64,000 nucleotides of DNA from Bilabrum cf. latius (lineage: Eukaryota): the NCBI GenBank assembly GCA_965178125.1, contig OZ237740.1, positions 1,054,001 through 1,118,000 of the forward strand. The letters run 5' to 3'. A program made the translations under genes and the position numbers. Under the pieces are notes generated by a model. The model had not been told where the DNA came from, searched no databases, and worked only from the letters and a program-made list of their open reading frames with translations. Positions 2,133 to 39,316 of the stretch are shown one piece after another. Each line of letters opens with the position of its first letter. The first letter of the stretch is position 1.

Positions 2133-4964
2133 TTATTCCATGGCGTGGTACGTCTGCTGCCCGGACTCCCCGGAAGCGTTGATTGGATCCGCAGACGCTC
2201 CAGCCCGCGCTCCACGTAGCATGTAGAATAGGCCCAGACCGAGCCCCACCACCACCACCGCTCCTGCGACGCTGCCTCCGATGATCAGCCCAGGGTTGGT
2301 CGGCTTGCTGGGGCCGCTCGGGCTCGTGCTGGGGCTCGGGAGGGGCGACGGGTCCGGCACGTACCCTCCGTTGCAGAACGTCAGCGCCAGCGAGTTGTTC
2401 CCCGCCAGGAACCGATCGGCGAGAGGCACCCCGGGGCCCTGTGCCGGGGGAGGGGAGAGAGGGCTGCACTGGAACGGGGCTACGGGCCAGCTCTGCTGCG
2501 ACAGGGTCGGGTAGCAGGGCAAGCTGCCGCCCATGCCCGAATCCAGGGCATCTCCTCCGCAGAAGCCGCACCCAGGCTCCTAAGCGCACGTCCAGCACAT
2601 GTCCAGCTGTGACTCGCCAGTCTGCTTGGTCTACATGCAGGCACGAGGAGCGGACAGGTCAACCATGGCTGCCACAACCATGGAACCAACGGTACCTGGA
2701 ACAATGACAACTCCCGGTGGCATGTTCATGACGGCAGAGACAAGCACGTGCCTGCCGTCGTTGCAGGTGGGATGGATGATTGCATTTTGGGACGCAGACG
2801 CGGCCATCTGCCACTTGGGACCGCCTCCCAGATCATGCACGGAAGCGTCCCGCCGATGCACCATCGCGGCCCTCATCGCTCGAGCGGCCCTACCGACCTG
2901 CTTGCTCACCACGTCGTGAAGCACGCGCCAAGCAGCATCACCGCTTGTGGGCACGGCTGCTTCCCCGCTCTCCCCCTTCAGGGTATCATAGTGCTCTTCA
3001 AGGAGCGAGTGCAGCTCCTCGGGGCTTCGCACCCGCGGCACGAGCGATGTGTCATCGTTCGTCTCGCCAGCGAGTGCCCTGATCGCAGGGGACGGCTGCG
3101 CGGGCCACTCGTCGTCGTCATCGGTGGGACTGGCCGGCACTGCAGGGTCGAGCAAAACCGACCGGATCCTGGTTCGTGCGTCGTCCGTGAGCTCAGGGTA
3201 CGGCTGTGCCGCCCTCCCAGCGTTCGGGATGAGGATGGCGAGCCCTTGCAGCTTGCTCTCAAAGGGCTCCAGGTTGCTGTTGGTCACTGCGACAAAGGCC
3301 ATCAGCGTGCTCTAGTCGTTGCCCAAGCTGCTGCTGCTGCCCCGCACTAATCCCTGGGGGCCCACGTTTTTGGGGTTCACGCTGCTGTCAACTGCCACGA
3401 GACCGGGGGATGCGATGTACGTGGTGGTGAACTGGATGCCATACACCGAGTTGTCGATGTTCTGCACCTGCCTCTGGATCCACAGCACGTCCAGCGTGGC
3501 GGGGGCAGCAACGGCGCGCCGCGAATCGGCAGCGCTGCCCGTGGGCTGCTTAACGCCGTACATGTTGCCGCAGCTGTCCAGCACCACGAAAATGTCGACC
3601 CCGCCGACCCGGATTCGCTCGGGGCGTGAGGCGACAGCGGGCACGCTCGAGGTGCAGGTGAACTGTTTGCCCTGCCCTTTCTGAGCCGCAGTCCGCGGCA
3701 CCCAGTCGGACTGGGCCATGAGGCCCCCGTCCTCGTGCGACAGACACACGACCCGCGACACGAACTCCGGCTCGCCCAGTCCCGGGAGGCCCGTTCGGCT
3801 CAAGGAAGCGCACAGGGGGACTGCCCTGCCGTTAGACACCGCGTCTCCGCCGGCCAGCGGGGTCTGCGGCGCGGTGTACGCAGCGGTGTTGAATGCGCTC
3901 ATGTACACGGAGGAGTTGCTGCGCAGGAACTGCGGCTCCACAAGAGAGCTCGCGTTCCTGCGCCACGCTGCTTCGCCGGACCACGGGTCGACTCCGATCG
4001 CGCTCGCTCTCGTCACGCGTTGCGGCCTGCCAGTCGAGGGATCTGTTCCATTCTCCACGCCCCCGAATGTGGTCGCGATTCGGACGGACTTCATGTCAGA
4101 TACCTTGGTGGAAGCATTCAGAACTCCGACTGGATCCGAAACTGCGAATTCAAGACCGCACTGCGATCCGGGCGAGCCGGTGGTGCTGGAACACGCCAGC
4201 AAGTCAATCGCCCACATAGAGGGTACTGGAACTTTATCGGCCGATCCTGTCTGTGCACTGAGCGCCGTCGTGTTGAGCATTTCAAGTCGAAGGATCGCAC
4301 TGCCATTGGTGAGCCAAGTGTTCTTTTCTCCGTACGTTGTGTAGGAAACAACCGCAAAGCGCGGATTTTTATTCAGAGTCGGATCGCGCACAGCAATTGG
4401 AGTGGTCACCCTGCCATTATTTCCAGAGGGGATCGTTCCGAGAGGCGCGAACGATTCGCTGACAGGCGCGACGTAGCTGGGGTGCGTAGCCAGCGCGATC
4501 TACCCGCTGCTACTCTGCACTAAGAATCCATACGGTTGATCAGTTGCATCTAGAATGTACCCAACCGGCTGGGACACGGCGTATGGCTCTCCAAGCGAAA
4601 TGATCGAGTAGCCCATATTCGCATTGGGTGTCACACTCGGTGCCTGTGCCCCGCTTCCATCACCGTTGCATACCTACGAACTCTACTGAATATCAATTGA
4701 AATAATCCGCGTTTCCCGGATAGGTTGTCCCTGCCCAAACTCGCCGTGGTATTTGGGAGGAGTGTACTCGGATGATGCCGACGCCACGAGGAACTGCGTG
4801 GGATATTGAGGGTTTCGAATGAATCGTCCGCTCAAGAGCGACGTCCCGCTGGCACTTCCAGGTACACTAAATCCATCATACTTTGTCACACTTGCGCGAA
4901 CAGCAGAAGCCAGCAGTAGGCTTGCGAGCATGATCCTCTTATTAATGGTTCTCCGGTGCACCAT
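2133..4964 (-). CDS. Single-pass type I membrane protein (~943 aa): signal peptide, large ectodomain, PSI-like Cys cluster, C-terminal TM helix
   Basis: One frame joined across TAGs at 4683, 4674, 4500, 3312, 2631 and 2580; ends at TAA 2133. N-terminal MLASLLLASAVRA, Cys cluster CWTCA*EPGCGFC, TM segment LIIGGSVAGAVVVVGLGLGLFY. Confidence 0.7.
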
Positions 4965-5114
4965 TCGCGAAATGTCCGAGAAACGCCAGCGAAAATTCGA
5001 AGGGTCAGCTACGGTTCCCGCTTAATTTACATGTTGCACTCTGCCGTGAATCAGAGTATGCACAGCTTATACAGTGCCAACCAAGTGGTAGCGCAACCGC
5101 TGATATAGAAGATC

Positions 5115-8100
5115 TCAAGAGGCCACCCTTGCCACCGCGCCCGCCCTGATACTGGCCCCTGAAAACCGAAACTCCCTCCACGCCTTGATGGTCTCCAGCG
5201 CGGTAGCTGCCAAAGAATAGCGAGGACTGGCCCCCACCCCTGCCCCTGCCCCATCAGATGATCCATCGTCTGAACTGCCGTCCAACGCGTCCTGCAGCTT
5301 CAGCACGCATAGCACTAGGGATCGGGCCGCTCTCACGTCTGCCGTCCTCAGTACCCCGCCGCCGTCGCTGCCCCCCGTACCCCCTTTGTGCTTCCCTGGG
5401 TCATCTACATCGCGGTATACGTGAAATTTTAGTGCAGCCAGGCAGTCGCAGTCATCCACCAGCCCCCGACCGCACACTCTTAGCGCCGATGCGGCTGAAA
5501 GTCCTCCCAAATCGGAAAACGGAGACACTGGCTCATCAGGGCGACCAGCGCCACCCTCTTCAAGCGTCGCGTGCTTGCCGCTGCTGCTGCTATCCGCGTC
5601 TACTGCGGCCGTCCCGTCGACAGGTGCATGCAGCTGAACACCGTCCAAGTGCGCTGCAAGCCGGCACAAGCTGTCCAGCACGGCAGCTGCAGAACTAGAC
5701 AGTATGTCCTATTGCCCTTCCACAGCCAGTCGCTGATAATTGATACCACCGGTGACGCTTCCATGCGTGCTAATCGACAGATCCAAGGCAGTGGCGAGGT
5801 CTGTGGACACATGACTCGTCTCCCATGACTCATCTCCCTGATGCGTCGCTGGCTTAAATCGATTGCCAGCCTCAGCGAGTGCCTTGGCTGCTGCGGTCTT
5901 GGCTGCTTCTGCGGCCAGTACACCCGACGACGATGGGGCTGCAGCCTTTGCTGCTTGCAAAGCGGCGTTGCAGAACGAACCAGCGACTGCGCCCCACGCA
6001 AGCCACGCGGCCCCCGCTGCCTTGACTGCGTCTACCACCAGCACGTCATCGCCAGCGCTTGAGAGCGAGTCTAGGCTTGAGCCCATGCTTGGGCTCTCTG
6101 TATTTGCCCGACCCGTATGCACACCGTGCTTTGCACACTCCTACACGGTCCTTGAGACTACTTCGGGCCACGCGACAGCAAGTCCAGGGCAGGCCGACTC
6201 GCTGCACGCCGGCATCAGCGCGGCCAGTTGCTCTTCCACCTTGGCCGCCAGTGCGAGCCTGGCCACTCCTGGCGGGGGCAATGCCAAACCATCTCCCGCT
6301 TCCCCGTAAGCAACTGCGCCATGCATCCCCTGCGCACCCTCAGACTCACCTGCATCTACCTCATTGTGGGTCTGCTTGAGAGCTCGGTTGCAGGCACGGA
6401 TGGCAGCTCGAAGACTGGCTAATCCGGGCACGCTTCGCAGTGCAATACCGGCAAAGAGGCCTGAGCCTTGCCCCAGCAGTAGGTTTCGCACCATGCTGCT
6501 CATGCCACTGCCTGTTCCTAGCAGCACAGCAACGTCGGAGCCATCGAGGCGCCAGCCGGCGGATTGCGGCACCAGGAGTCGAGCAAGCGCCCTTCCAGCG
6601 TGGTCTTGGTCTGCCTTGGCGAGCAGAGGCACCGCCGCTGCAGTGGCAAACGTAACGCCTCCAAGCAAAGCATCACTCGCTGCTATGCTCTAGCAGGCAG
6701 AGCGCAAGATGGATGCCGGTGCCGCTACGACGTCTCTCGCCGGACTCGCGCTGAGTGCAGATGCGGCTGCTGCGTGCATCAGGGGGTTGCCCACCGCAGC
6801 CGCCATGTCAGCACCGAATGGACGAATGCTGGCAGAGCTTAGCACCGCCCGGACAAGATCCCGACACACCCCATCCACCGACACGTCCTCCAGTACAGCC
6901 GCACACACGTCTTCAATGTCGCCGGCCAGATGCTCGCGCCTCGTGCGTGCCGCCAAGCCCTAGTCTTGAGATCCACCACGCGGGGCCACGGGCTGCGGCA
7001 CGTCAACCCAGGGCTGCTGCTGCAGGAGCTGAGCCACGGATGCCTGAATGCGCCCTTCCGCCTTGGCGTGCGCCGCCCCCTTGAATCGACCGGCGCCCGG
7101 TCGGCTGGCAGCACCGCTGCCCCTAGCGCTGGTCAGCACGAGACCCGCCAGCTCAGCAGCCTGCAGCTTGATCAGCTCCCGACGCAGGGGACTGACACGG
7201 AAGACCGATTGGTCACTAGTGCTTCCCTTGCTGCTGGAAGCCTCCTCGAGGTGCGCGAGACCATGCATCAGGGACAGCGGCGCAGATGGTCGGAAGGACC
7301 GGTGCACGTAGCGTCGAAGGTGCAGCGGGAGCGAGCTGCCCTCTGCAATGCACCTCTTCCGAAACGTCCTCTGGATCCTGATCGCGCACATCATGCGGGC
7401 GCTTCTCTGTGAAAGCACGAGGGCAGTGGAGCCCACCGCATCGCCCTGCCTATCAACAGCACCCCCGCCACCAGTTAGAAGCAGCCGCCCGGGCTGGGTG
7501 CTAGCGGTCCCCATCGCGCCGCTGTCCTCGTCTAGAGTCCGTCCCTCATGTCCATTTGCTACGTCAACTGGCAGGGGGCCCGACCGGAGGGCGTTCTCTA
7601 GTGCAGCCAGCTCGCGGTCCGACCGAACCACAGCCAAGGTGCCTCCGAGGTCACCCGAGTCCTCCAGCACGCAGTGCTTTGCACGCAGCAAAGCAAGCAA
7701 GTACCTCCGATACGCCTGCAGCATGCGCCTGCCGTCAGGAGGAGCAGATGCGGCAGACATCTCAGATGCCTTTGCAACGACGGCAGGGTCCGTATCTGCA
7801 GGTCCGCTGACCCCTTTCCCGGGCTCGTTCAGCACGCGGCTACCTCCCTACGTGCTTACCTGTGAGGCACTGAGGATGCTTGCGTCAGCAAGCCGTCGTG
7901 CCGCTTGCATACGCAGGCGGGGCATGGATAGCGCTGCCTCCGTGGTCCAAAGCACGTCTTCATCGGGTGGTTCCAGCCCCAGGGCGCGCTGGGTTTCTGT
8001 GGCGAGCGTGTGCCTAGCTTCCAGCACGGCCCTCTGAACCGAGGCAGGCAGCATACCGAGGCCAGACTGCAGCACCTTCCCCAGAGCCACGTCGCCCGAG

Positions 8101-11100
8101 TGCGCCCCTGCTGCAGCAGAGACTACCGCCCTGGAGCCCAGCCCAAATAGGTCCCTTTCCAGCAGCCTGGACCGCATCGACACGACGTGCACCAGCGAGG
8201 CCATCTGCTGCGGGGTCCATGCGAGCAAGAGGTTTCGTGACAAGGCGCCGCCCCACATTCCGGCGGACTGGGCCGCTTGCGCCGCCACGGCACTTCCCGA
8301 TGCGGCTGCAGCCACGAGGTCCCGCTCCTCGCTGCTATCACCGTTGCCGAGACCCTGCTCCCTCGCAGCGTACTGAGCCAGCTGTCCCGCGATGCGGCCA
8401 TTCTCCACTGCAGGCGCCCACCCGTCCGCCGACAGCTCCGGCAAGGACAGCGAGCGCGCCAGCAGCCCGCGGGCCTCTATGCTCCGCCACAGCGACGCAA
8501 CGTTGACTCGCCCAGCCCCACCAAGCCTGACCGCCGTCTTCGCCATGAGGCCGCTGTACACAAAGTAGGCGTCTGCGAATACTCCGCACGCCTCTAGCAA
8601 GGTCACAGACGGGCACAGCTGGGCGAGAACCTGGAGCGTTTGCCGCATGCTGAGACTGGTCGACGCCTGCCCGAGGAGAAACCTGTCGCGGTGACCCTCG
8701 GAGATGGTCTCTGGTGCCAGCAGCAGGGATGCAGCGTCAGCGCCGCGCCGATGCCGCCGCCTGTCCCGCCTCGCGCGCCCGGTTCCTGTCTTGCCTGCCT
8801 TGGCCTGTTGCTGGTTGCCTGCCTCGTCTTGGTCCCTTTCGCTCCCTTCCTCCGCGTCCGCTGGTTGCGATCCTGTTTCGTCTTGTTCGGCCTGGGTTCC
8901 GGCAAGCGCATCGAACGACGGGAGCTTGGAGGCTGCACGAACCGCCTCGAGCACTTCATCCTCCCTGCAGTGGCTAGCTATGGGGTCGCACGGGCGGGCG
9001 GCTCGGCTACGGCGCCATCCATCCCTGGGTGCCGGTGGCTAGGGGATGGCAGCAAGGTTGGGGTTGTCATCATCCCCATCGCTGTCCACATCCACGGCCG
9101 GCTCCCCCGCGATACTGTCGTCACGCTCGCGCACAGAAACTTCCTTGCTAAACGGGCTCTGGCTGGCCTGCTGCATGGCGTGCACGAGCTCTGCATCCCT
9201 CGCAGCCTGTTCCCTGCGGTACACCCTCAGCAGCACCTCGAGCACCTCGAACAGGTCCACGCACCTGAGCTCCCTCCGGTAGAACTGGTCCATACGCTCC
9301 TGGTGGCTGATCAGCTCGATGGCGTCGTCGTCCTGCTCATCTGTACCCGTTGCTCCGTTCAGATCGACGAGGCTGGATCGGCGACGCTGGCGGCTTGCGG
9401 CGGGAGACGCGCCCCCGTCGCCTGCGATGGCCGAGCTGGCGACGCTTCCTCGCCTGGACGGTGAAGCAGCGCCCTGCGACGCGGCACTGCCACCCACGCT
9501 GCTGCTAGGGTGCGATGCATCGGCGGATGCTGCAGCATCGGCAGGGACAAACTCACCCTTGTTGTTTTGCTGCTCCATCTCTGCGTTCATTCTCTGGATC
9601 ATCGCCTTGTCCGAGGTGGCCATCGCTGATAGCGACTCGTGGCCTCGCATCCCCCGTAGCAGCGCGGCTGCAGACTTCCTCTGACTCGCAGACATGTGCC
9701 TCGGGAGGCGACCCTCCGCCAGTCTCGATTTTTCGCGCACTGCCTTCAATGCCGCTGCACGCTGTTCGGCGGGCGCAGCTCGGAGCAGGTAGACGACCGC
9801 AGAGGTCGCGCGGGCCATCGGAATCCACACCCTGCGAGCTGGCAAGAGCCTCCATTCCTTTCTCCAGGGTACCTCGGACGCGTGGGGGGGCAGCACATCC
9901 GCACGGCTGTCGGGTGCAGGCTCAAAGACACCGCCGTCGTCAACCTCAGTTTCGGGATCTTCCCATCCGACAGGCCCCAGCCGGCTCGCAGCATCGTAGC
10001 AGTCGCTACCATGCGGAGCTCCGTCTGAAGCATGCTGCCCACCAGCTCCGCTTGAAGCCCCCGTGCCCGTGCTCTCGCCACCAGCGTCGGTGCCAGCTGT
10101 CGCTCCGTAGCTTTCTTCTCGCCTGGCCTCATACGCCTTGTTCAGTCGCTCTCGACCCACTGCCTTCTCGCAATCGAACCACAGCGGCGGATGCACCACT
10201 GCTGCATCTGCATCCTGTTCTGCAACCCTCTCCATTTGGGCCAGCTTCATCTCCTGGGATGAGTCAAACGGCAGCATGCGGACTACGAGCGGCATGTCGC
10301 TTGCACTGGAGGCCACCCATCGAGGCCCGTACCTTGCGCCCCACCAGCGCACCGTCTCCATCCCAGTCCACACCGCACTGCTGGAATCCGTTCCTCCGGC
10401 TCCTTGCGCGCCCGCATCCACCATGGCCTTGTCGGGGACAGACACGCCCGTGTCCGCCCCCGAGCTCAGCAGCAGCCGCAGCGCCATGAGCACGTACTCG
10501 AGCCCGTCGGAACCGGTGGCGCCGTCCAGCAGCTGCAGGAAGATGCGTCCCTCGGCGCTCCAAGTGGACAGTTCCTTGGCTCCGTAGAACAGCGCCCAGC
10601 GGTCCGCGTCGCCGGGCCCAATCTGGCGCTCCCACCCAGCGGCCTCTCGGCTGCTGTGCGTCGGTCGGAAAGCCTGGCTGCGCCGCAGAGCCGCCGCAAT
10701 CGCGGACGAGCTGCTGGTCCCATGCACAAGCGCGAGCCTCGCGATCTCCGATAGGGGGCCCGCAGGACCTATCCCAAGCTGGCCGTCATGGTCCCCACGC
10801 TCGATCTCACGCACGCTCAGGTGATCACCCGCAAACCAAGCGTACGCGTAGTCGGCGAGGGGTGCATACCACGAGGCCGCCGGGCCGGCAGCAGCCCGAA
10901 CCGATGCGTCTATCCTTGCCCTCGACAGCAAGATGGCTCGGATGCACCACTGCACCCACGCGGTCGGCCGAGGGCAGGGCGGGTGTGCCATGCCGCGTCC
11001 AATAGGCCTCAGCATGGCGCGAAACCTGGCGGCCGTCACCCGCAGCGCCCAACCCTTGGCACCTACAGCATCCGTTGTGCTCTCGAGGAGCAGCCTGGTC

Positions 11101-13595
11101 CTCTTTTCCAAAACCATGGACTCCAGTGAGGGAGGCACTGTACCGGCTTCCTTAGTGTGGCCGTCCATTTCAACGGCGACTTGGCGCTGCATCTAGGCGG
11201 TGTCCAGCGCGTCAGAGTCTTCCAGTCGCATGCTAGCCGACTCTCGCTTGCCGACATCGTGGTCGTAGCGCCGCTGCAGCGCCCGCACGTCAGCTTTGGC
11301 TGCGGCTGCCCTACTTCGAAGCGCCAAGCTCTCCGCCTCTACCTCCTTCACCTTCTCCACCTGCTCGTCATACTCGCGAATCACCTTCTCCTTGGCATCC
11401 TGCTCGTCCCTAACCCTGGCCTGCAGCCTCAGCTTGTCCTTGTGAAGCCCCGCCACGGTGAACACCGCGTCTCCCGCGTCCACGGCATCTCCCATCGCCT
11501 GCAGGCTCTCCCGCACCTCTGCCGTCCTTGCCTGCGCCTCGGCCGTCAGGGCTTTCTATCGGTCCAGCCTCTCCTGCCACTGGGCGTCTCTCTCCCGCTG
11601 CTCGCGGTCCAGCTCGGACTTGAGCTCGGCGCGGATCAGCTGCCGGCGGAGGAGGGCAGCGTCCCGCTCCCGTGCCAGTGCCTGCCTGCGCGCCTCCACG
11701 CAGCCCAGGGCACGCACCAGCGACATGGCGAGCTCCTGCCAGCCCATGTGTAGGCGAGCAAACGAGCGCCGTACCAGGGCTGCCTGCTCTGCGCGCTGCT
11801 TGTCGGCTGCGTCGAGGTAGCCTTCCAGATCGCCAGCCGCCAAGTCGCTCCATTTCTGCTGCGAGCCCAAGGCGGCCATTGCTTGAGCAGCCGCCGCGCA
11901 GGCTGCCACGCTCTCCTTGGAGGCCGTCGTCGGTTCGAACTCGCCGAGTGGAGGCAAGTCGTCGGCGTCCACGATGCGGGCAGCAGCCGCGTCCCCGGGC
12001 GCCCCGATGCTTGCGGCCTCGAGCGACCGCGAAGCACGCCATCTGCTCGAACCTCCGCCTGCGTCTGTCTTGCTCCTTCGCATTGGCGTCGGGGCCGGCA
12101 TGAGACCTCCATGGCTTGTCGTGCAACTGGCGTGCTTGCCGTCAGTCTCTCCGGATGCTCCCACCGCCTGCTGCTGCTGGTGCTGCTGCTGCAGCTCCCC
12201 ACGATCCAGCCTCGCGGCCACCTCACCTTCTCGAATCACCTCGGCAATTCGCCTAGCAGCTGCCGCCTTGGCCCGGACTAGCTCACCCTGCACGGTTTCG
12301 TCGGCAGCGTCGCGAGCCTCCGCATCTGCCTTGGACTCCACTCCTCCACCTCCGGGCTCGCGGCCGCTACCTCGGTGCCGGGATGGCGAGCCGGACTTGG
12401 TCGCGCTCGCACCAACTGTACCTTTCCTACTAGCTCGGCCGCCTGGCTATGCCGTGCGCGAAGCTCGCAGGGGCGAACCGAGCGCAGTGGCCACCCTGCT
12501 TCTCACCGTGGACCGGGAGTGCGACCCCGTGCCGCCCACTGCCGACGCCCGCTTGGGGGAGGCGCCACCGGCACCTCCACCTCCTTGCGACACGCGGCCC
12601 GTGGGCCCTGCAGCGGCTAAACGCAGCTCTGCTGCTTGCGGGTTGGCGATTTCCGCGGCGTCGGTGAGTGCCCCGACCAGCTCCTCTCCGCAGTGGTCGA
12701 GCACGAAGCTGAGCATGCTCGTCTGCTCCTTGGCCTTGCTGGCGGAGTACAACGCTCCCGCCCCGCCGTCTCCTCCTCCTCCGCCCCCGCCGTACCTGTA
12801 CCATCTGCCCTCGGCCGTCTGGATCACAGAGCCACCCGCCTGCCGGAGTGCGAATCTTGAGGGCGGCGCTCGCTCGCTGCCGCTGCTGCCGACTGCCTGG
12901 GCCTGCTGCTAGCCGCCGCCACTGGCACGGCTCCTTCCAACTCCCCTGGGAGCGATGTCTGCCCGTAGGGGAGAGCTCAAGGGGTCCAGGGCTCCGGCCC
13001 TGCCCCCTTCCTGTCGCGCTGCCCAGGCAGGCACACGGGGCATCACTGCGGGAGATTCGGAGGCACGCCCACCCTCTCCACGTGGTCCCCGTGGAATGCT
13101 TGTGGCGGTGCTGCGCCGCAGTAGTGACTTGTGTTGTTGCAGTGCACTGGTAGGGTAGCCCTGATCGATGGCAGCTCTTCCTGATAGGCCATCTCCGGTG
13201 CCCGGTAAAGAAGGGAGGCTGCCGGACCTTGCGACCGGACCTTGCGACCCTGTCACAGGCAAGTTCAAAAGGCTGCCGCCGAGCCGAGACACGATACCGC
13301 TTGTATTTGAGGCATTCCTAGAGACTGAAACTGTCGTCCCGCTCCCGGCGGTCCGCTGTCGTGCGATACTCGATTGCTGGCGAGCACTTCGCGTTGCGTG
13401 GCCCGCACGTGTAACTTGAGCCTGCAGAGGCCTTGCTCGGTCTCTGGATGCCTGTAGCACACTTTTGGACTCATCACGCGCACTGCTTCGAAGCACACCC
13501 AGTCGCAGTTCATCGTGCGACCCCTCCGATTGCAAAGCAGCCGCTCGTGGGATCCTCGCGTGCGGGGTACGGCTACGCCTTCTGGCGGCTGCCAT
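5115..13595 (-). CDS. Very large (~2826 aa) coiled-coil/low-complexity protein with an IQ-like motif; function unknown
   Basis: Eleven track ORFs share one frame and are separated only by TAG (12909, 12447, 11556, 11193, 9039, 7848, 6960, 6690, 6141, 5709); the true stop is TGA 5115. Coiled coil around 11200-11850; AIRIQRTFRKR near 7350-7385. Confidence 0.75.
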
Positions 13596-13969
13596 CGGTC
13601 GATGCTGCAGATTAGTTCCATTTGGTCCAGCTTTAGCGTTCGACGACGACCTAATGCTGCTCTGGCGGAGGGGTGCAGGGCTAACACCTTGTGAGATGTT
13701 GGGACTCTGTCGGACCGAGCTGGACGTACTGGGACCCCCGTGTAGGTCCCATTCTGAGCGCTGGCTTCCGTCTATGTACTACATAAAAGGGATTTTGATG
13801 CCTCTGTTTCCCAAAGAGTAATGTGAGAGTGCTTCAATGAGCCCAAACAGCACCTCCCGCGACCCGTTGAAGGCACGTTTTAATCTCCATCTTCATATTT
13901 GGTCGACTTCAAAGCGGCTAGATTCACTGAAGTCGCTGTAATAGTTGGCATAATCGAAGCAGCACAAAT

Positions 13970-15700: not shown

Positions 15701-15725
15701 CGTACTAGATCAATGCGGCGCACCC

Positions 15726-19361: not shown

Positions 19362-19516
19362 AGGGCGGGCCATTGAATGCGAACGTTCATTCTGGCGCAG
19401 CGAACCTTTTGCGACCTAGTCTCGCACGGCCAGGCCAAGAACCATCTCGTGGCATTTTCGACGGTGAATCACAACTCTCTAACCTAAATTTTGCTTGGCT
19501 TGCTTTCAAAACTAAA

Positions 19517-27516: not shown

Positions 27517-29115
27517 TCAATCTGGATGAATTGCTTCCTAACCCTTCGCCATCCCAGTAGATCTAAGGTTCTCCTTGTCCACTGTAGATTCAGCCGAACC
27601 CTGCCTCTCCAGCGACATGTCTCCTCCAGAGGTGGGGCTACTTCCGCGCGGACTAGCAGTCGCACGGCTGTCTGGCTAGCTAGGTTCGTGGGGCAGCGTG
27701 GTCGGCTCGCCACCCACCAGGTGGAAGACAAGCGCTCCAGACACAACGATGACCAAGCTCACCCAGTACCACGCACTCAACGAATTACCAAATATAGCAG
27801 CAGCAGCTAGTGCAGCCCAGGCGTCCGACGAAAGCAGCGATATGTTGAAGAAAGCTGCGTCGGCGTGTTGCAGAAAGTGCGCTGTCAGCACGTACATTGC
27901 CACAAGGCACACCACGAAGCCAGCCAGATGAAGCTGGACCCCCCCAGGGTGACTACCACTCACTGGATCCAGCCCAATCAGCTGCAGGGCACCGCGTCTC
28001 TCGAGCACGAGCACTTGCACCACGCTCACGACAGCTCCAAAGGCCCCCACGCCGCCCAGGTACTCCCCGGGCCCTCCCCGCCCCCTGACCAGCGCCTCCT
28101 GCGCGACATTGTTGCAAGCATACAGAATAGAACCCAGCACACACAGCATGTCGCCGAGAGCCCGCTGGCCCCCTTGCGACCACTCCGAGGGCGGCGTGCT
28201 CGCAGAGGCTGCAAGTCGGAGCACTTGCTCCGTGAGCGAGCGCGCCGGTGACACGCCAGACGGGGGAAGATCTGCACCGTTGCCCGCAAGGGTTGCGTTT
28301 CTTCCTCCCCCGCTTTGGCTGCCGCCACTGCTGCTGCTGTCCCCCGGATCTACAGCGTCACCGATCACCAGCACGATGAGCCCAACGAGGCAGACAAGGC
28401 CGGCACCGATGTGAATCCACGTGAACCGCCTTCGCAGGAAGATTGATTCGAGCAACATTGCCGTTGGAATGCTGAGACAATCCAACAACATGACAGACGT
28501 TAGAGTCGTGTACTAGTACGCCATCACGACGAGAAAATTCGCCTCCACGTCGGTGAAGCCAAGAACCGCATACCGCCACCATGGCACAGATAGCTCCGAA
28601 CAGCATGGCCTGCACTTCCAACAGTCCAAATTTTCACAACCGCATAGCAGAGCCGGCTGGTTATCGGGGGTTTGCAACGCGTGCGGCGCGCCAGAATCCT
28701 GCAGCCTTGGCGCAGCGGCGGGAACACGGCTCTCGACGGGTGTCCCCAGACTCTTTGCGACTGGGGAGCAGAGCAAGGGCTCGCTATCAGACCTTGATGA
28801 CTTGACACATCCATTTGTTCCGTCAGAATGCTGTCTCGTGTCCTGACCCTCTGTTGAATCGTTCAAGTGTTCACCTGTGCTGCTGGATGGCATCCTCGTG
28901 TTAGAATTTAGTCGTGGACAAGCTAGCCGGACAACCAAAAATAGCGATAACAAACTGTAAGATAATATCGATTGCGACGTGGGTGCATCAACGCCTGCGT
29001 TGGCTATCCAGGTCGAAAAAACCCCAGTACCAGCCACGAGCAGACTGATAGCCTGGCCGAACAGTACTGTAAAGAATGCCTTGTTCGTGCATATCGAGCA
29101 CGAAACCTACGCCAT
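27517..29115 (-). CDS. SLC35F1/F2-like (DUF914) solute carrier
   Basis: GQAISLL, APTSQSILSYSLL, DVEANFLVVMAY*YTTLTSVMLLDC, GDMLCVLGSILYACNNVAQE and FFNISLLSSDAW. TAGs at 29107, 28513, 27676 and 27538; stop TGA 27517. Confidence 0.9.
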
Positions 29116-29278
29116 GACTATGATTTTGTCAGACTCCCTCTGTCATGTGACTGTCTCTTGCAATGAGAAGAAGCTGCAGTTGCACAAGAGCACAGCAACA
29201 GATGACGATTGAGCCTCCTGCGAAGAACGGTGCAGAATCTAGCACAAGTAGTACTTTTAGAATATAGTACCATTGCAC

Positions 29279-32200
29279 ATGGATGAAAATAGTGGTCATG
29301 CAGGGGAGTCACACAGGGGACGAGGGAGAGGTCGTCGCAATAGGCGTGGTGGGAGGGATCGTGGTGGACGACGCGGCGGCGGCAGAGCTGGTGCAGACGG
29401 TGTATCTCAGACCGGAGGTGGAGTTAATTCGTCTACGTAGAGATAGAATACACGTGGTGGGTCGGGAACCAGGCAGGCTGGAGGACAGAGTAGGGAAACC
29501 GGTGGCTTTGCTGCCCGTGCGCTCGCAAGAGCTGCAGCCTCTGGAGCAGGAGCAGCAGATCCAAGTGAAATGTCACAAACCACGCGGGCAAGTGGTGGTT
29601 CCGGAGGAAACCGTGGTCGCGGTAGAGGCCGAGGGGCCGGTCGAGGGCGGGGTCGAGGGAGAGGCAGATCTCCGGGGTCCGGCGGGACTAGCTAGTAGCA
29701 TGGTGGGTCTGCTGCCCGCAGGGGCAGGGGTGCCAGACGTGGCGGGCGTGGTAGGGGTGGATCGCATCGTGGTGGCTCGAATGCACCCCGCGCCCGCGCG
29801 CGGCAGTCCACCGGAGCCTCCTCCGATTCTGATCCATCCGAAGGGGAGGGCCGAGGGCCTCGAGGGAGAGCGCGGGCGAGACGGATGGGGAGGGGCAGGG
29901 GGAGGAGGAGGACGATGGGTTCGGTTGAGAGCTCCTCGGAATCATCCGGTTCGTATGACAGCGACCCTGACGGAAGCAGCTCCAGCCCCATTTCCCAGCT
30001 GGGAGCAGACTCGGATGATAGAGATTCAGACTCAACCCGAAGCAGCGAGGGGGATCAGTCGAGCGTGATCTCTGATTCGTACGAGCTGAGGCAGTTTCAG
30101 GGAGCAAGGAGGAAGCACCAGTGCGCTGTGGTAGGGCTGGCGACGGCAGCCATCTCGGTTGACATCGATGCGATCGTCGGCGCGGATGCTCGCTGGGGGC
30201 AGGAGGACCCCGCAAGGCCGCTTGCCCTGCGCCGTCTGCTTTGTCCGGAACCCATGCCCTACGCTCTCGACTTCGTGAAGATAGCGCTTATTGAACACGG
30301 CGGACACATGGATCCGCCGGCGAGCGAGTTGGCCTCAAGCCGAGATGCGTTGGCGACCGTGCCTGCGGCAGCGCTGGAGCTGTCTGCCATTATCTGCGGA
30401 GCTATTGCGCAAGCGACAGCCAGCCGCATTCGACAAGAGCTTTAGGGCAGTTCGTCTGATAGCGATGCCGCATCTGCGGTGACGTTTTCCGATGACACCG
30501 ATTTGAGTGCCGCGGCCACGCGAGCCTTGATCCCCCTGCTGCAGCGCGAGCTCAGGAGACTGCCCTGCGAGGGCACCGCGCTGAGGATCCGCGAGGCGGG
30601 TGCTGACGGCACGACACATGTGGGGGCAGCCAGTCTAGCCGCAGCTGCCGGTGGCAAGACATACGAAGTGTCCATGAAGCGCAGCCAGATCTGCTCTGGC
30701 GCACTGCCGGCGCTTGCCATGATGCTGTATCCCTCCTTGCCAGTGCAGCCTTGGGAGAGCCGGAACAGGTTAGTGCAGCTGCCGGAGCCAGATGCCTCCA
30801 ACAAGGCTCGGTTGAGGAAAGTGGTGCACAGCGTCACTCGACACCTATTGGCCACTGACTAGGCGTTGCGGTCGTCTGGGGACTCTTCGATAGATAAGGC
30901 GTTCGACGAGATGGCGGCGGTCGGGCTGCGACCAGGTATCGAAGAGCAGGTCGCATCCGGTTTGCTCGCTGAGAGTCAGGTGCAGGCGAGGGAGGCCATG
31001 GGGACGAAACCTGTCGCCGCCTGGCAGATCGGAGCTATGCTTGAGAAGGTCATCTTTGGGCTGCTGCACGACCTCCCGACAAGACTGAAGGGAACCTCGG
31101 CCTCGTCGCCTTACGCGCTAGAAGGCGCCAAGCAGGCGCTTCGGTCTTGCGGGCTCCTATGGGCCACCCTTTCCAGGGAACACAGAGTGAACGAGCCCAA
31201 GACTGTCCACGACGATGTAGGGGCCCGTTGCGCGAGCGCTCGCATCGATAGGCTCCTCGGAGAGGGTGCACCTGGCACGCAGGTGCCCGCATCCCTTGTG
31301 GACAAGATGCAGCGGGAGTGGGCGCGGCGGGATGCGATGGAGTCCTCTTCGTTGCGCGCAATTATTAGCGAGCTGCAAGACTGTCTGCAGGCCAAGCCCA
31401 GCTTTGCCTTTATGGTCGTGCAGGCGTTCGGTTTGCAGCGCTGTCTCAGGCTATTGGTGAGCTGTTCCAGTCGCCCGGAGCTAGAGATCGTTTGCGAGGC
31501 GCTGCGGCTGTCGCGAGAGGTTCAAGAAGAACAAGATGGCTAGGACGGGTCTGATGGCGCGGCTGGCAGCTCCACAGCCAGCGCTGTGGCAACTGAGTTG
31601 TCCTAGGGCTTGCTGCACGCCAGGCTCGCAGCATCTTTCGTGAATTCGTACGCAGGCCTAGAGGAGGGAACCGAGTCGCAGGTGACGCCTCTGCGTGCAG
31701 TTCTCTTGTCGCTGCTTGTGGCGGCTGATGTGGAAGGCGGCCTCATCGACTGCATTGACCCGCCCTCCTTGCCTGGCGGGGCTTACGATTGGGACGGAAG
31801 CTGGCTCCGAGGGGCCATGTGGGAGCAGGAGGGCAGTCAGAGGGGGAGGCGCTCTGTGCAAGACCTAGCACACTGCCGGCCATGCAGGCCACAGGGACTT
31901 GATGAGGGATTGCTGATGCACGTTCTCTTTGGGATTGCGAGGCGGGGTACCCCGCTCGGGGTGGTGGAGCTGCTCCGATCGTTGATCGTGCTGCTAGTGC
32001 GGTGCGTGACCGGGCACGAGCTGGGACAGACCCTGTTGGAGGACTCGGACTCCTGCTACCAGCCCGAGTTTGACGGGCAATGGACGGCGGAGAGGCTAAG
32101 GGGCCATGGCAGTGATGCCGCACAGGGCTCTCTGCTCCGGCCCGAGTGGCTTGTGGCACACCAGCCTCTCCGGAATATCAAGGCGCTTGCCAGCATGGAC

Positions 32201-35200
32201 TTCATGTCCGTCAGATCGTGCAGACTGCTGCTGAGCAGCGGTATGGTCGCGTTCCTGTGTCAGAGGGTTGCGCGGTGCCTGCGCGGGCTTGCGTTCGACG
32301 TTGCCGGTTCCTGGGACGACGAGTCGTACCGGTCGTCCGAGGACGAGGTGCACGTTCTGCTGAAGAAGGGCGAAGAGTGGTCAGTGCGGCAGCTGCTTGG
32401 CTCGGCGAGCCAGCTGTACCTCCTGCGGCGCGCGCTTCCCCGCGCATGCGTGTTCAAGCCCGCCGAGGCCGAGGGCCAAACGCTTGCAGTAGCCGCGATG
32501 GTGGTGGCTGCAAGGCGGTCGGACTACCTGTGGCGCCTTGCATACGACAACGTGGGCGAAGGCGGCCAGACCAAGGCACAGACAGCCGGAGATCGTGCGG
32601 CAGATCTAGACGCAGTGGTGGGTGGATTCTTCGACGACCTTGAGGACGTGGACGAGGACGTCATCGGCGGGGCACTGATGGACGTGGACAGAGAGGGATC
32701 CGGTGGCGACGCTGCGCTGGGAGCAGCAGCGGGCGCGGCGTCTGGGGCAGGTTCAGGGGATGGGAGCAAGCCTATTCCTGGGACAGCCTCTGGGCCAGCG
32801 TCCAGCTAGCCCTCTGTGAAGCATGCCCACGAGGGCCTCGCATCTCTCAAGTCGGCCATTGCAACGCTGAGCGAGACCTCTATGCTTGACCACGACTGCG
32901 TGCGGGGCCGCGAGGTCAGGCTGCCGAGGGGGGAGCCGGCCTTCGTGATGTGTCACGGCGCCGACTCGTTTGGCGATGTAGATACAGACAGAGACGCGTG
33001 TTTGCCGAGCCTGGCAGCCACTGGGCTCCCAAGCGTGCCGGATCATCTGGAGTGGCTGTGTGAAGAGCTGGCCCAAGAGACGCTCCGTATGAAGACACTG
33101 GCGGCAGCAGCAGGGCTGCTCGGGTCGCACGCTTCGTCCGCCGATTTAGTGGCTGACTCAAGCACCGATGCACCGGCTGCCAGCGGTCGCGCCGCAACCG
33201 ACCCACTCGCAGCTAAGCCGGCACGATTCTCGCTGGATTCGGCTTGGCTGCGCGACTGGAGGCACATGCGGTCGACAGGGCTCAGACAGCTTAGCTTTGC
33301 TCGAGATTGGGCCGACTGTGCATTTGGGATCCTCGCTGCCCCCGTTGCCACGGCATTGGACCACGCCTTGTCCGCGATGGATCTCGCGCATACCGGCTCG
33401 CCCATGGAGTGCGTGGGTCGGTTTGGCGCGATCTTGTCATGCTCCATGGCCTTTGGCCAGGTGTTGCAGGCCTCGTATGCTCATCATTGTGCTGGCAAGG
33501 AGGACGGGAGCGATGGTGGTGCCTCTTCACTAGCAGCTAGTGATGGAGGGGAAGGCCTCTGGGAACAGCTGGTCGAGGCGCAGGCACAGCAGCGGTCTCC
33601 CGCCTCGGCATCGTCTGCGTCTAAAGCAAAACGGATTGGCGCAGCGGGTCTCGCAGGCCTGTAGCAGCGGCTGGAGTATGCACCTACAAGCCAGAGCTTG
33701 GACAAGCTTGTGCTCGTGTGTCTGCCCAGCATTCAGACCCAGGTGGTGCGCGGCTCCAAGCCGTCCGGGTCCTTGGCGCCGCAAGCGGCAGCCTAGTCCG
33801 CACCAGCAATGTCGCGCACCCGTCGGCCGCGCCGTATTTTCAAGATTGAGAAGGATGGAAAGGAGCCAGAGTGGGCCGCAGAAGCTAAAAAGCGCCAGGA
33901 GGAAGACGAAGCAGCAACGAGGACCGCTGCCGCACAAGCACCGGCCCCGCCCAGCTCACTTAGCCATCATCCACAAGCCGAAGCAGCCGCATAGTGCCAG
34001 GCAGCTCCTCTCCCAATCACGGTGTCCAGCGATGTTGTACCGGCTCAAGCACTGACCCTAAAATAGATTAGGCGTTCCGTGTCAAATGAAAGTCGCGGGC
34101 CTGCTCCTGATGCGTCCGAAGGTGTCGACGTTAAACCACGCGCCATGCCAGATATGCCCACTCCGTCGAGTGCCTCGCTTCTGGTCGTTACGGTGGCAAA
34201 CTGCGCGCGAGATCCATGCAAAGCGATATCCGAGGCTCGACCTACGCACCCGTCGGTCGTTCGTCTGTTTCAGCGACGCAGCACCGCGATCCAGGAGCTG
34301 GCAGACAACGACGAAGCCGGCGAGCTGCCCCCGATGATGGGCTTTCTGGCCGATATTCCTAGGGTCATGCCTCTTTCTAGCCGCATCTCGTACGTCTCTA
34401 GCCTCACGAGCGACCATGATGAGCGCGAAGTCGGCCTATTTGAGGGCGACATCGACCGCATTGCACGGGGTGAGGATTTCCGTCAGTCGGTCCTGGCCTT
34501 CGTGCTGGATATGATGCGCAGCCGTCCAGAAGAGGTACGGCCGCTCCCTACCATCGTATTCAAGGGAGAAGAGGGGGCAGGGCCCGGGCCGTCTCGGGAG
34601 GGGCTAGTACTGCTTGCAAACGTGCTTTTCTCCACCGAGCCCGTGTGGCGCGCTGAGGTAGACGCCAAGATCGCCGCTGGCACCAAAGGTGTCAAGTCGG
34701 CCGAGGACGTTGTGCTGGACGGCTGCTCAGAGGACGGCACATCGCCAGGACATCCTGTGGGGGACGCGCTCCTGTGGGCACTGCCTCTGTTCAAGCCATC
34801 GCCGGACGGGCGGCACGTGGTGCCAGTGCCGAGCGAGTGCATTCCGTGGGGGCAGCCGGTCCCTGGTGCTCCGAAGCGCTGGGTGTCCGCGCCACGCTAG
34901 GGCAAGAAGAAGACAAAGAAACAGAAGGTGGTGAAGGAGGCGCAGCCAATCCGGTACCCTCGGTCCAGGAGCATGGGCATTCGTATCAGGCAGGCGCTGT
35001 TTAAGGCTGCCGGGCGGCTGTTGGGGATGTCGGTCCTCAGCCGGCAGCCCCTTGGTGTGGCTCTGCCGCAGATCATGACAGATTTTCTGCGGTTTCCTGC
35101 CGCCAGCTCCATCGAGTCTCTGATCGTTGGTTCGGGGTTTGCTGCTGCGGACGCCTTCAGACAGCAGCTCGACTTCGAGCAGACATAGGTAGCTGCATTC

Positions 35201-35812
35201 GCCGAGGCCACAGAGGCCGCGAGGCCTGGCCCCAGCGCGCGAGCCACGGGGTGGCTGCGGCCCTCTCCCGACTTGCTCGCGGGGGCGTCGCAGAGCGCAG
35301 CAGCGCTGGTGCGAGCCATGGGAGAGGTGGATGCAGGGTTTGCGCGCCAGTGCAAGGCCATTCTGCAGGTTGACTTGGGATACGGGATCGAGCCAAGCGT
35401 TGAGGAACGGGCCAGAGAGGTCCTCGAGAGCGGCGGAGACTCCACAAGCAGGCGCGCCGCTGAGGCCGTCTCTGGTGTACTGGCTGCCTGGGTCCCTCCC
35501 GAGACGGGATTCGAGGACATGCGACTAGAGTACTCCGGGCGGGGGGACGGGCTGCCTGCGGGCGCCTCGCCAGACTGCCAGCTTGCATTCATGCAGGAGT
35601 GCGTGGTGAGGCAGGGCGGGGGACGCGTGGTGGGCGGGTTTGAGGCACCTACGAGCCGCGTGGCGAGCAGGCTGCTGGCGGGTCCGAAGGGTACAAAAGG
35701 TCGCAAGCGGAAGGGTGGGGCGGGCTCTGGCGGCTGGCAAGCTGACCCAGCTGCAGGAAAACGAGACGACGAGGGCGCGGGCGGCTGCAAGTCGGACGAT
35801 GAGGACGAGGAA

Positions 35813-35844
<32 letters not shown>

Positions 35845-36856
35845 AGGCACGCCACCCTAGGCCGGTGGAGCTGGCTAGGCGAGCGGGACGCCGTCCGGCG
35901 CCGCAACGGGCGGGGCAGCCGCTGCAGGCAAAGATGCGCCATCCAGCCCGGGCAGCGCCGCACCGCTGAAGCCGAAGCACGGAGGGAAACACTGGTTGCG
36001 CTACCTGCAGGCCGACGGTGCTCTCCACGTCTCGGAAGATCCTCTGTACTTCGAGCACGGCACGCGGTAGGAGACGGAGGCCCAGGCGAGGGAGAGGAGG
36101 GAGGAGGAGGAGGCGTGCGGACCGCTGCCCAAGGAGTTCCCCTTGACCGTTGCAGTGCCGTCGCCGCTTTTGCGCAACGACACCAAGCTGCAGTTCGTGA
36201 GGCTGCATGCGGCGCGGCTGTGCCTTGGCAGCCCGCTCGCGGCTGATGCAGAGTCCCTGCTTATCGTGCAACAGCGGGTCACTCAGCGCGAGTGGGACCA
36301 GATGGGCTCGTCTGGCGGCTTGCACGACCTGCGAGAGTCGGTGCAGTGCTCCTTTGAAATGCTGGCCTCGATGAAGACCCGGGCGTGTGACGCGGCCGCC
36401 ATGCGAGACGGCTTTTCTGAGATGGTGACCCGCGCGAGGGTGTTCTCTGCCGCGGAGCTGCAGGCCATGTTCCGCGGGTCTAGGAGTATCGACGTGCGCG
36501 CCTGGCGCGCGGCTTCGAGGCCGCACCCGCCCAACCTGCGCAGCCCGGTGCTTGGCTGGCTGTGGGACGAGATCGGAGGGATGGACGAAGCCTTGAAGCG
36601 GGCCCTCCTTCGTTTCTGGACGGGGAGCTCGACGCCTCCGGTGGGGGGGTTCCGGTCGGGCGTGCAAATGGAGGGCAAGCTTAAGGTGTGCGTGTCTCAT
36701 CAGTCGAGCGGCGGAGACGATGCTGACGGTAGGCTGCCCAAGTCGAGCACGTGCGACTTGCAGCTGCAGCTGCCGGCGTACAGCAGCCGAGCAGTCCTCG
36801 GCAGACAACTGCGGAGGGCCATTGAAATGGCTGGGGAAGGGTATGGCTTGCTCTGA
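29279..36856 (+). CDS. HECT-domain E3 ubiquitin ligase (~2525 aa) with RGG-rich N-terminus
   Basis: One frame with 18 in-frame TAGs, including tandem TAGTAG at 29693-29698. HECT motifs IVFKGEEGAGPGPSREG, LFKAAGRLLG, LLRFWTGSSTPPVGGF and LPKSSTCDLQLQLPAYSS (catalytic Cys); C-terminus EGYGLL then TGA. Confidence 0.9.
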
Positions 36857-36961
36857 GTGGACTTGTAGCACGCTGCATTTTGTGTCACCCGGAGCCCGAA
36901 CACGCTAGGTTGTCCTCGAATAATCAAAACATTGTCGCCACCTTCAAGTGTGGGCCACAGG

Positions 36962-39316
36962 ATGGGGACCAAAACTGAACTGCTACTTGGTACAGCTGGC
37001 TTCTTGATATCCCTTGCAGTGGCTGGGGGTGTAGCCGGGTTGCTATTGCCCGGCAAGCTAGGCGAGGCTGGCACTTTGATCGGGCTCACGTTCATGTGGT
37101 ACGCCGTCGCCATCGGCCTCACCCTGCTCAACAAGTACCTCTTTAGCTATCTCGAGGGCGGCGAATTCGATTTTCCCGTTAGCTTGTCGGCTTGTCATTT
37201 GATATTGTAGTTTATCGTAGCGTCGCTGCTTATGAAGCTGCGCCTCAACCTGAAAGCCTGCGGAAGCGGGTCGCCTAAGGCTGCCAGTGAGGCAAAGCTA
37301 CAGGCAAAATTGTTCGAGTGGGCCAACTTCGTATCGCTGGCCCTTCCGGTGGGTTGTGCCACGGCGGCAGACATTGGGCTCAGCAATTGGTCCGTCACAC
37401 GAGTCCCAGTTGCAGTCTACACCGTCGCAAAGGGTTCGTCGGTGGTGTTCAATCTAGTTTTTAGCATCCTCATGGGATACTAGCGCTTCTTTCCGTCGGT
37501 GGTGGGGATCATTTTGCTTATCTTTGCCGGCGTAGCCATGACTAGCTTCCCGAGCAAATCCGAAATGCATGAGCCGGACCCCGAGCAAATCCGGAACGGG
37601 ACGGCCACTCTTGCGCCAGACCAGGCTGAAAACAGCAGCTCCGTTGATGACGACGTGCGCACGGCCACACTGATCGCAGGGACGCTGGCCGCAGTCGGCG
37701 CCGCCATGGCGAATGCCCTCCGATGGGTGGGCACCGAGCGCATGATGAGGAAGGCCGAAGAAGGTGGCGCATGGAACAACGCAGCGGGCGGTTTCGGGTA
37801 GGGGATGAGCAGTGCGGCCGCTATTGAGGACAAGGGGCTGGGCCTGCGGGGCTCCCCCGGGACCGGAGCCCTGGCCAGCAGTGTAGCCCTGTCTGCTCGC
37901 CCCGATGGTGGTGGAGTGTTGGCGGCCGGGCATGGCCGGGGAGCGAGGGATGGTGGAATTGGTGGCTTGCAGGGCAGCAAGGTCGGCAAGATGGCAGGCT
38001 TGCAGGGCAGCAAGGTCGGCAGGGCGGCAGGTGGTTTTGGCGATGACGCTATGCCTGATACAGAGGCGTCGATTGCGGCTGCGTTTGGCATGGGCAGCGG
38101 GAATAGGGGGTATCGAGCGTCAACCCATGATGAAAGTGGGGCGCGACACGGTCGGGCTGCGAGGGGGGGCCGCGGGGGTAGCCGACGGGGGCAGGACGAG
38201 GACACGCTTGTGTTTGCTGGCGGTGAAGATGGTACGATTGGAGATGTGCTGGAACTGCCGCAAGGGTCATCGATAGACTTGGAGAAGCAGGGGCTGCTGG
38301 CAGGGTCAGAGTCCGACGAGGCCGAGGATGCGAGCGGGGCGCATGGGCTTGGCGAACTTGACAATGGCGGTTTGCTCGGAGCAGACAGACTTGCAAGAGC
38401 TGGATCAGAGGTTGGAATGCCGAGAGGAGCTCTCGGCATGACCCCGACGACACGGGGGGCACATCTCCAAGGCGGGGGCAGGGCTGGCACGGGTGCTTTG
38501 GACACGGACACCGGCGGGGCAGGCACCGCGACAGGGAACTAGGGCGGGCAGGGGGGCGCGTCATCTTTAGCTCTAGATGGACGGGCTGGGGTGCGTCGCT
38601 TGGCGGGAAACGAACTCGACGGCGGGGCGCTCGGACCCACTCCTGCAGCTTTTGGTTAGGGCACTGCGGACGTCAACGGAGACAGGGGCACAGACACCAG
38701 CTCGTCGACGGTCGTAGCAGCAGCAGTCCCTAGTGGTGAGAGGGAGGAACGCGGGGGGCACGTCAAGGTCGATCCTGTGCTTCTGCTGTCCGTTGTGGCC
38801 CCGGCATCGGCTGCCATGCTGCTTGGCCCCGCCCTGCTTTTGGAGGGGACGGGCATGGCTGCGTCCAGGGTCTGGCACACTGCGGGAGATGCTCCGGTGG
38901 CCTGGCTGGGTCTGCTGGGGGGAGGCCTGGCTGCCTTCATCCTGCTCTTTGCCGAGATGGGTGTGATCTCACGGACGAGTGCGCTCACCATCACGGTGAT
39001 TGGACACGCAAAGGAGACGCTGGTCATCCTTCTGTCCGTGGCAGTGTACGGGGACTAGTTGTCGGCGCTCAACGTGTGCGGGATCTTCGTAGCAATGGCG
39101 GGGATGGTTCTGTACTCGTGGTCCAAGCTTTCTAAGCGAGACGGGCCGGAAGAAGAAACCAGCGGTAGCAGTGCCAGTGGCGCAGGCGTGCACGGAGGGG
39201 CCGGGAGCGGCAGTGACGATAAGCCACTTTCCGCAGCAGCCGAGGAGGGGGGGGCAGGCGGTGCCCGACGAAGGGCGCCCTCTCCGGGCCAGCATAATCA
39301 GGCAAGTACAATGTAA
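36962..39316 (+). CDS. SLC35C2/YMD8-like nucleotide-sugar/TPT-family transporter with a long internal low-complexity loop
   Basis: WYAVAIGLTLLNKYLF, FDFPVSLSACHLIL*F, DIGLSNWS, YTVAKGSS, ALRW and RTSALTITVIGHAKE. TAGs at 37208, 37481, 37799, 38540, 38657 and 39056; ends TAA 39314-39316. Confidence 0.88.

Follow-up and report, generated by a model that had tools for sequence, protein, structure and literature searches.

The excerpts of two published accounts on which we draw here (PMC5304391 and PMC11687900) state that UAA and UAG nearly always share one meaning. The exceptions that they give, in which UAG alone has changed, are the rhizarian exLh (leucine, Leu), Iotanema spirale (glutamine, Gln), Scotinosphaera (serine, Ser), and Protocruzia tuzeti (Gln). 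In phyllopharyngean ciliates, reassignment of UAG alone to Gln arose twice, according to the excerpt of PMC11687900. From the excerpts, a tRNA with a CUA anticodon reads UAG and leaves UAA untouched. The eRF1 protein of Iotanema carries a T32G change in the GTS motif (Panek et al. 2017, excerpt of PMC5304391). Here, we analyze a stretch of DNA from Bilabrum cf. latius (contig OZ237740.1, positions 1,054,001 to 1,118,000). We call the whole stretch of 64,000 nucleotides (nt) the window, and all counts below refer to this one 64-kb window of a single genome. An initial annotation had stated that UAA and UAG are usually recoded together and that UAG-only events are rare, in agreement with the excerpts of both accounts (PMC5304391, PMC11687900). 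Its core reading was that the window has recoded TAG but keeps TAA as a terminator without any use as sense, and that reading agrees with every test possible in the window. In our assessment, UAG is very probably a sense codon here, most likely for Gln, and UAA and UGA are the sole terminators. We take this code to be NCBI translation table 15.

Our gene set consists of 20 modeled genes in 22 coding-sequence (CDS) pieces, which together hold 18,148 sense codons. For 19 of the genes, the 3′ end lies inside the window; the remaining gene extends beyond the window start. Within these codons, TAG occurs in frame 101 times, TAA and TGA never, CAA 179 times, and CAG 588 times, exactly the pattern of absent TAA and TGA beside freely used CAA that had first been claimed. 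The two off-frames of the same genes contain 242 TAG, 105 TAA (35 in +1 and 70 in +2), and 570 TGA triplets. From these off-frame rates, approximately 121 TAG, 52.6 TAA, and 285 TGA triplets would be expected in frame, and the Poisson probability P0 of encountering zero in-frame TAA is 1.5e-23. Likewise, the TAA:TAG ratio of 0:101 differs from the CAA:CAG ratio of 179:588 (Fisher test, p = 3e-11). Thus, TAG appears at the rate of an unconstrained triplet and behaves like a freely usable sense codon, and TAA and TGA behave like triplets barred from the reading frame. The absence of TAA is neither due to chance nor merely a product of how open reading frames (ORFs) are delimited. Specifically, no pair of adjacent long same-frame ORFs in the window is split by a lone TAA. 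Five in-frame TAA triplets do lie just 5′ of start codons, all of them within short AT-richer intergenic stretches.

The same conclusion emerges from the lengths of the frames. With the standard stops, the longest frame in an ORF scan of the window has 718 codons. Taking TAG alone as sense yields frames of 2,926, 2,548, 1,595, and 1,437 codons, and the maximum stays at 718 codons if TAA or TGA, rather than TAG, is taken as sense. Pfam domains are present in 11 of the 20 modeled genes. The families encoded are ABC1/UbiB kinase, RluB-type pseudouridine synthase with an S4 domain, eIF4G-like (MIF4G), SLC35F, TPT, HECT ligase, reverse transcriptase, DHBP synthase (RibB), PX, RING, and AGC kinase. 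The frames that TAG opens are real, ordinary eukaryotic genes, and all but the AGC kinase gene are modeled as continuous frames from ATG. The window has a GC content of 62%, and only 9,499 of its 64,000 bases (15%) fall outside CDS in our models; it is nuclear DNA of a GC-rich, compact, intron-poor protist. Five of the genes are as follows.

2133..4964, minus strand: gene for a secreted single-pass membrane protein of 943 amino acids, no Pfam family, 6 in-frame TAG
5115..13784, minus strand: gene of 2,890 codons, no Pfam family, 11 in-frame TAG, TGA end
19517..21130, plus strand: AGC protein kinase gene, 1 TAG (in exon 1), TGA stop, GT-AG introns at 19835-19925 and 20394-20497
29279..36856, plus strand: HECT ubiquitin ligase gene, 2,526 codons, 18 in-frame TAG, TGA end at 36854-36856
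36962..39316, plus strand: gene of the TPT/nucleotide-sugar transporter family (PF03151, E = 3.6e-17), 6 in-frame TAG

Among the frames that stay open only when TAG is read, the gene at 5115..13784 is the longest. Intergenic spacers are short and the genome is very compact: 105 nt separate the TGA stop of the HECT gene from the ATG of the next gene, on the same strand and in the same frame (36854-36964), and 283 nt separate the convergent stops at 39316 and 39600.

As to what TAG encodes, 15 TAG sites can be aligned, and at each we took the closest homologue or paralogue. The residue found is Q (Gln) at seven of the 15 sites, and every other residue occurs at no more than two. At a background of 5% Gln, the chance of at least seven Q in 15 is 3.5e-6. 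Four sites illustrate the pattern.

28513..28515, minus strand: SLC35F-family gene 27517..29115; TAG within AYxYTT, opposite Q in 8 of 15 homologues
25700..25702, plus strand: eIF4G-like gene 23252..27430, MIF4G domain; TAG within RLRFLCxDVLD, opposite Q in 5 of 5 PDB sequences
53047..53049, plus strand: gene 52720..54375, DHBP synthase (RibB) domain; TAG within PLRYxNGGVL, opposite Q in all 4 RibB sequences shown, which are enterobacterial
33794..33796, plus strand: TAG in the HECT gene, paired with the CAG at 23387-23389 in a paralogous segment of the eIF4G-like gene

At the SLC35F site, the remaining homologues have N (three), R (two), S (one), and A (one). The PDB sequences matched at the eIF4G site are those of human eIF4G1, eIF4GII, and eIF4G2; a second TAG site of that gene has Q in eIF4GII and D in eIF4G2. 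The other TAG of the RibB-domain gene, 11 codons upstream, pairs with N. In the paralogous segments, the HECT gene has ...CAAGCGGCAGCC TAG TCCGCACCA where the eIF4G-like gene has ...CAAGCGGCAGCT CAG TCCGCACCA, that is, AAAxSAP opposite AAAQSAP. The six TAG sites of the gene at 2133..4964, set against relatives of 49-55% identity, have Q, A, K, Q, R/M, and A. The TAG sites in the RluB-type and GH27-like genes fall in columns that vary among PDB sequences (H and E/K, respectively) and are little informative. The two best conserved columns, those in eIF4G RFLCxDVLD and SLC35F AYxYTT, both favor Q. With the small sample in mind, TAG is probably Gln.

The eIF4G-like and HECT proteins also have in common the peptide RRPRR-FKIE-DGKEPEWA-EAKKR, encoded by DNA of 78% identity (23450-23513 and 33854-33917). 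This common segment may represent a shared binding motif.

An amino acid other than Gln, for example Lys, Glu, or Leu, to which UAG or UAR has been reassigned elsewhere, is a very improbable meaning for TAG. Eight of the 15 sites lack Q and show N, H, E, K, A, A, R, and L; at one site, K is present in two relatives, and a less conserved site of the segment common to the HECT and eIF4G-like genes pairs TAG with TTG (Leu). However, the sites lacking Q are variable columns, the two best conserved columns are among those with Q, and no rival residue recurs at more than two sites.

The ends of the genes reveal which codons terminate. TGA closes 17 of the 19 gene ends within the window, TAA closes two, and TAG none; the initial annotation had the two TAA ends right and counted 18 TGA ends, of which our models retain 17. 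As a loose control, we took GC-rich contigs of other, standard-code organisms on which an SLC35F homologue lies; the stop of their long ORFs is TGA in 16 cases, TAG in 7, and TAA in 7. In the HECT protein, which ends in ...GYGLL*, the Pfam HECT match reaches profile position 305 of 306. The domain ends right at the TGA, which is thus a true stop here. The two TAA ends, and a transcript-like unit close to the second of them, are the following.

2133..2135, minus strand: TAA terminator of the gene at 2133..4964, protein ...TYHAME*
39314..39316, plus strand: TAA terminator of the TPT-family gene at 36962..39316, protein ...QASTM*
39387..40148, minus strand: transcript-like unit around the small gene 39600..40133, which ends in TGA; seen in contigs of RNA-like runs

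We scored coding character, in bits per codon, with a codon-usage log-odds score trained on the window's own genes. Past the TAA at 2133-2135, GC content falls from 0.66 to 0.49 and the codon score from 0.28 to 0.00. Past the TAA at 39314-39316, GC content falls from 0.67 to 0.52 and the score from 0.21 to -0.23. Both quantities likewise drop behind the 17 TGA stops, in keeping with the claim that AT-richer sequence resembling an untranslated region follows both TAA codons. The next in-frame TGA lies six codons 3′ of the TAA at 2133. Beyond the TAA at 39316, the next in-frame TAA comes after 58 codons and the next TGA after 85, and read-through would enter the 3′ end of the neighbor's transcript (39386/39387) in antisense. 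Contigs of two public sequencing runs from two studies (X6 and X7) begin at 39386 and 39387, whereas that of a DNA run (X5) continues through. X7 covers 39387-40148, and a further run, X8, covers 39517-40141. The RNA nature of X6-X8 is a software guess, which makes the boundary at 39386/39387 a weak hint. X6 leaves 39262-39385 uncovered, and neither X7 nor X8 reaches the TAA stop at 39314-39316; these gaps speak neither for nor against the stop. The 3′ end of the unit limits the space behind the TAA stop at 39316. Judged by its surroundings, the TAA at 39314-39316 qualifies as a firm terminator, the only firm one of the two.

The unit at 39387-40148 measures 762 nt and surrounds a gene of 178 codons (39600..40133), and would have a 5′ leader of approximately 15 nt and a 3′ end of 213 nt. 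Its depth in the RNA-like runs X7 and X8 is far above that of its neighbors.

Could TAG also terminate? Under an ambiguous or context-dependent code of the Condylostoma or Blastocrithidia type, TAG would be sense internally yet terminate near true gene ends. Such a code, in which TAG must serve as a terminator too, is very improbable here. It could accommodate those genes that have a TAG 59-85 codons ahead of the annotated stop, and also the coding scores that are low, though positive, in the tails of the RluB-type gene (0.08) and gene 40288..42237 (0.09). However, by decile of gene length, the 100 TAG codons counted number 15, 15, 13, 10, 4, 8, 9, 7, 13, and 6, with no enrichment toward gene 3′ ends and no excess in the last deciles. 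Behind the last TAG, the coding score is positive (0.08-0.34) in 17 of the 18 TAG-bearing CDS pieces; the exception, at -0.01, is a tail whose six codons are too few for a verdict. Read from the last TAG to the stop in their two alternative frames, these tails score negative in 16 of 18. Here, the tails are judged by codon score. Each gene reaches a TGA or TAA in a coding-like frame, and none of the 19 gene ends requires TAG as its end. Finally, the base following TAG is G 40 times, C 26, A 18, and T 17, and that following CAG is G 232 times, C 174, A 110, and T 72; the context behind TAG mirrors that behind CAG. TAG in the role of a terminator, as ambiguous stop/sense codes have it, was not encountered in the window.

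A code in which UAA and UAG both specify Gln (UAR = Gln) is NCBI table 6. In that case, TAA would be absent in frame merely through GC richness. GC content at third codon positions (GC3) is indeed high, and A-ending codons are a minority: 23% in CAA/CAG, 25% in GAA/GAG, 21% in AAA/AAG, and 11% in TTA/TTG. Moreover, the TGA six codons past the TAA at 2133 would suit such a code. Nonetheless, the four pairs predict 31, 33, 26, and 12 TAA, respectively, per 101 TAG, and the probability of finding none ranges from 1e-5, for the most skewed pair, TTA/TTG, to 4e-13. The missing TAA codons are not explained by GC bias. TAA is found 105 times in the off-frames of the very genes that have it at none of 18,148 in-frame codons, Gln positions included. 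Finally, under UAR = Gln, the gene that stops at 39316 would be longer by 85 codons, which resemble non-coding sequence and include a second TAA. Together, these figures make the UAR = Gln code highly improbable for the window.

Finally, although TAG translation is judged here from the DNA letters, it is scarcely credible that the TAGs are artefacts or untranslated (pseudogenes, assembly errors, or U-to-C transcript editing). Unlike decaying sequence, the 54 kb of CDS combine 101 TAG with a complete lack of TAA, TGA, and frameshifts. The letters are also identical in four runs of three studies, and RNA-like contigs keep TAG. Specifically, the 5.8 kb at 36500-42300 are present in contigs of four public runs (X5-X8) with zero differing letters, and the patchy RNA-like run X8 keeps all three of the TAG codons that it covers. 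No joints were reported in these contigs. The identical runs and the TAGs of X8 argue weakly against both RNA editing and assembly error. The segment 36500-42300 was found in runs under three organism labels, and 30001-40000 under four labels from four studies. The organism may be carried along in cultures or samples of others.

With UAG as Gln and UAA as stop, we infer the following mechanism. UAG would be read by a tRNA-Gln with a CUA anticodon, whose C34 would pair only with G and so leave UAA alone. In eRF1, recognition of UAG would have been lost or weakened, with recognition of UAA and UGA kept. Former TAG terminators would have been exchanged mostly for TGA, which would fit a GC-rich genome.

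Beyond the eight sites lacking Q and the TAG-TTG pair, several points count against our reading. The sample is 64 kb of one genome, and rare sense TAA codons may occur elsewhere in it. The window holds just two TAA terminators, one of them firm; the TAA at 2133 is a plausible terminator but no proof of termination, as its sequence is equally compatible with a seven-residue extension to the TGA. Termination at TAA and translation of TAG are both judged here from the DNA sequence. As concerns the mechanism, a tRNA scan of the window returned no hits, and no eRF1 gene lies in the window.

Comparison to the described systems places the window's code among known ones and its bearer apart from them. 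Iotanema spirale, a fornicate, has UAG as Gln and UAA as stop, the same code as the window so far as tested (excerpt of PMC5304391). The window differs from Iotanema in encoding two proteins of the kind expected in aerobic mitochondria, an ABC1/UbiB-type kinase and an RluB-type enzyme with a presequence, and in having stramenopiles as its best named homologues. Protocruzia tuzeti and two phyllopharyngean lineages likewise have UAG as Gln and UAA as stop, and the code has several origins among them (excerpt of PMC11687900). The window is set apart from these ciliates by its 62% GC, its retroelement, and the multiple genes on its 64 kb of contiguous DNA; ciliates are also absent from its best named homologues. 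Ciliate macronuclear genomes are usually AT-rich. Table 15 is also the code of gut phages that read TAG as Gln ("genetic code 15") and a historical ciliate assignment. The formal code of those phages is that of the window, whereas the window belongs to the nuclear genome of a eukaryote and contains introns. UAR = Gln codes, which also turn a stop into Gln, are found in many ciliates, hexamitin diplomonads, some ulvophytes, and Amoeboaphelidium (excerpt of PMC5304391). TAA is sense in those codes, whereas in the window, it is used at none of 18,148 codons and ends two of 19 genes. In exLh (UAG as Leu) and Scotinosphaera (UAG as Ser), UAG is uncoupled and UAA is kept as a stop, as in the window (excerpts of PMC5304391 and PMC11687900). 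The residues at the window's TAG sites, in contrast, fit Q at 7 of 15, L at 1 of 15, and S at 0 of 15. In a full-text search of a limited literature collection, we found no reports of a UAG = Gln-only code in stramenopiles or in GC-rich non-ciliate protists. The code itself is already known; the lineage here is apparently new.

The homologues lean toward one group. For all three proteins tested, the best named homologues are stramenopiles, at 31-59% identity: Cafeteria for SLC35F (38% by BLASTP, 42% in the alignment), Hondaea fermentalgiana for ABC1 (41% over 29% of the query), and oomycetes for the AGC kinase (56-59%). Non-stramenopile matches score close behind the stramenopile ones, and these similarities suggest a lean toward stramenopiles, not a result. 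The protein search returned no full-length form of the window's SLC35F protein. Metagenomes yielded 80 SLC35F loci, of which the 31 of at least 4 kb were examined for frame gain; none of the 31 gained a long frame specifically from reading TAG. In-frame stops are present in 11 of 96 tblastn segments from the metagenomic SLC35F loci. Ten of these 11 have mixed or non-TAG stops, as introns would give, and the eleventh is a single TAG in one distant locus (L073). Judged by their ORF lengths and in-frame stops, the distant SLC35F-bearing metagenome contigs appear to use the standard code. Distant homologues together with standard-code metagenome relatives fit a separate origin, short of a phylogeny. 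We tentatively propose, with somewhat less than even confidence, that the combination of UAG as Gln and UAA as stop arose independently in a lineage for which no change of the nuclear code is known and which may be a heterotrophic stramenopile of deep branching.

The protein library contains a relative of the gene at 2133..4964 (49-55% identity) solely in the form of three separate ORF pieces (P0334, P0335, and P0338), two of which abut within approximately four residues. In-frame stops, short contigs, or introns would all give such a split. We found no DNA of the 54% identical piece, P0334, in genome or viral contigs. The C-terminus of the same gene matches P0342 and P0343 (E = 6.5e-4 and 9.5e-4; 36-38% identity), but too weakly to indicate the expected end of the protein. 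The three-piece relative hints that the code may mark a whole clade.

Nuclear code changes are rare, and each uncoupling of UAA from UAG constitutes a natural experiment. Such cases bear on how eRF1 discriminates the third base of UAA and UAG, and on how a tRNA with a CUA anticodon captures a single stop codon. A GC-rich, compact, intron-poor case outside the ciliates and metamonads would widen the known conditions for uncoupling, and the window's genome would be convenient for locating the eRF1 and tRNA changes. If the code did arise independently in a GC-rich genome, TAG is expected to have once been common as a terminator. In that event, scenarios of AT pressure and codon disappearance do not readily explain the case. 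From the practical side, standard gene callers split this organism's genes at each TAG.

Further features of the window include a tandem duplication between two genes (15718-19366), with a unit of 1,818 bp whose copies differ at 10 of 1,831 aligned bases. The duplication shows no convincing coding signal, no Rfam match, and no Pfam match for its longest frame; an Rfam scan of the whole window likewise gave no hits. Purine-rich frames at 47345-47767 have a coding-like score and were rejected as genes, as they contain several TGA and no protein-like sequence. The DHBP synthase domain encoded at 52720-54375 is closest to enterobacterial RibB (E = 4.5e-45, E. coli RibB structures) and is followed by approximately 370 alanine/glycine-rich residues without a family. 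The Pfam match of this domain begins at profile position 43, and our model may lack a 5′ exon. For the window's reverse transcriptase, no relatives were found in the metagenome, genome, or viral contigs searched. This enzyme belongs to a retroelement-like ORF of 1,582 codons at 42328-47073 on the minus strand, with an RVT_1 domain and 10 in-frame TAG, which show its adaptation to the host code. A tandem repeat (unit 72 nt, 7.6 copies, 46440-46988) makes up the N-terminal part of the ORF.

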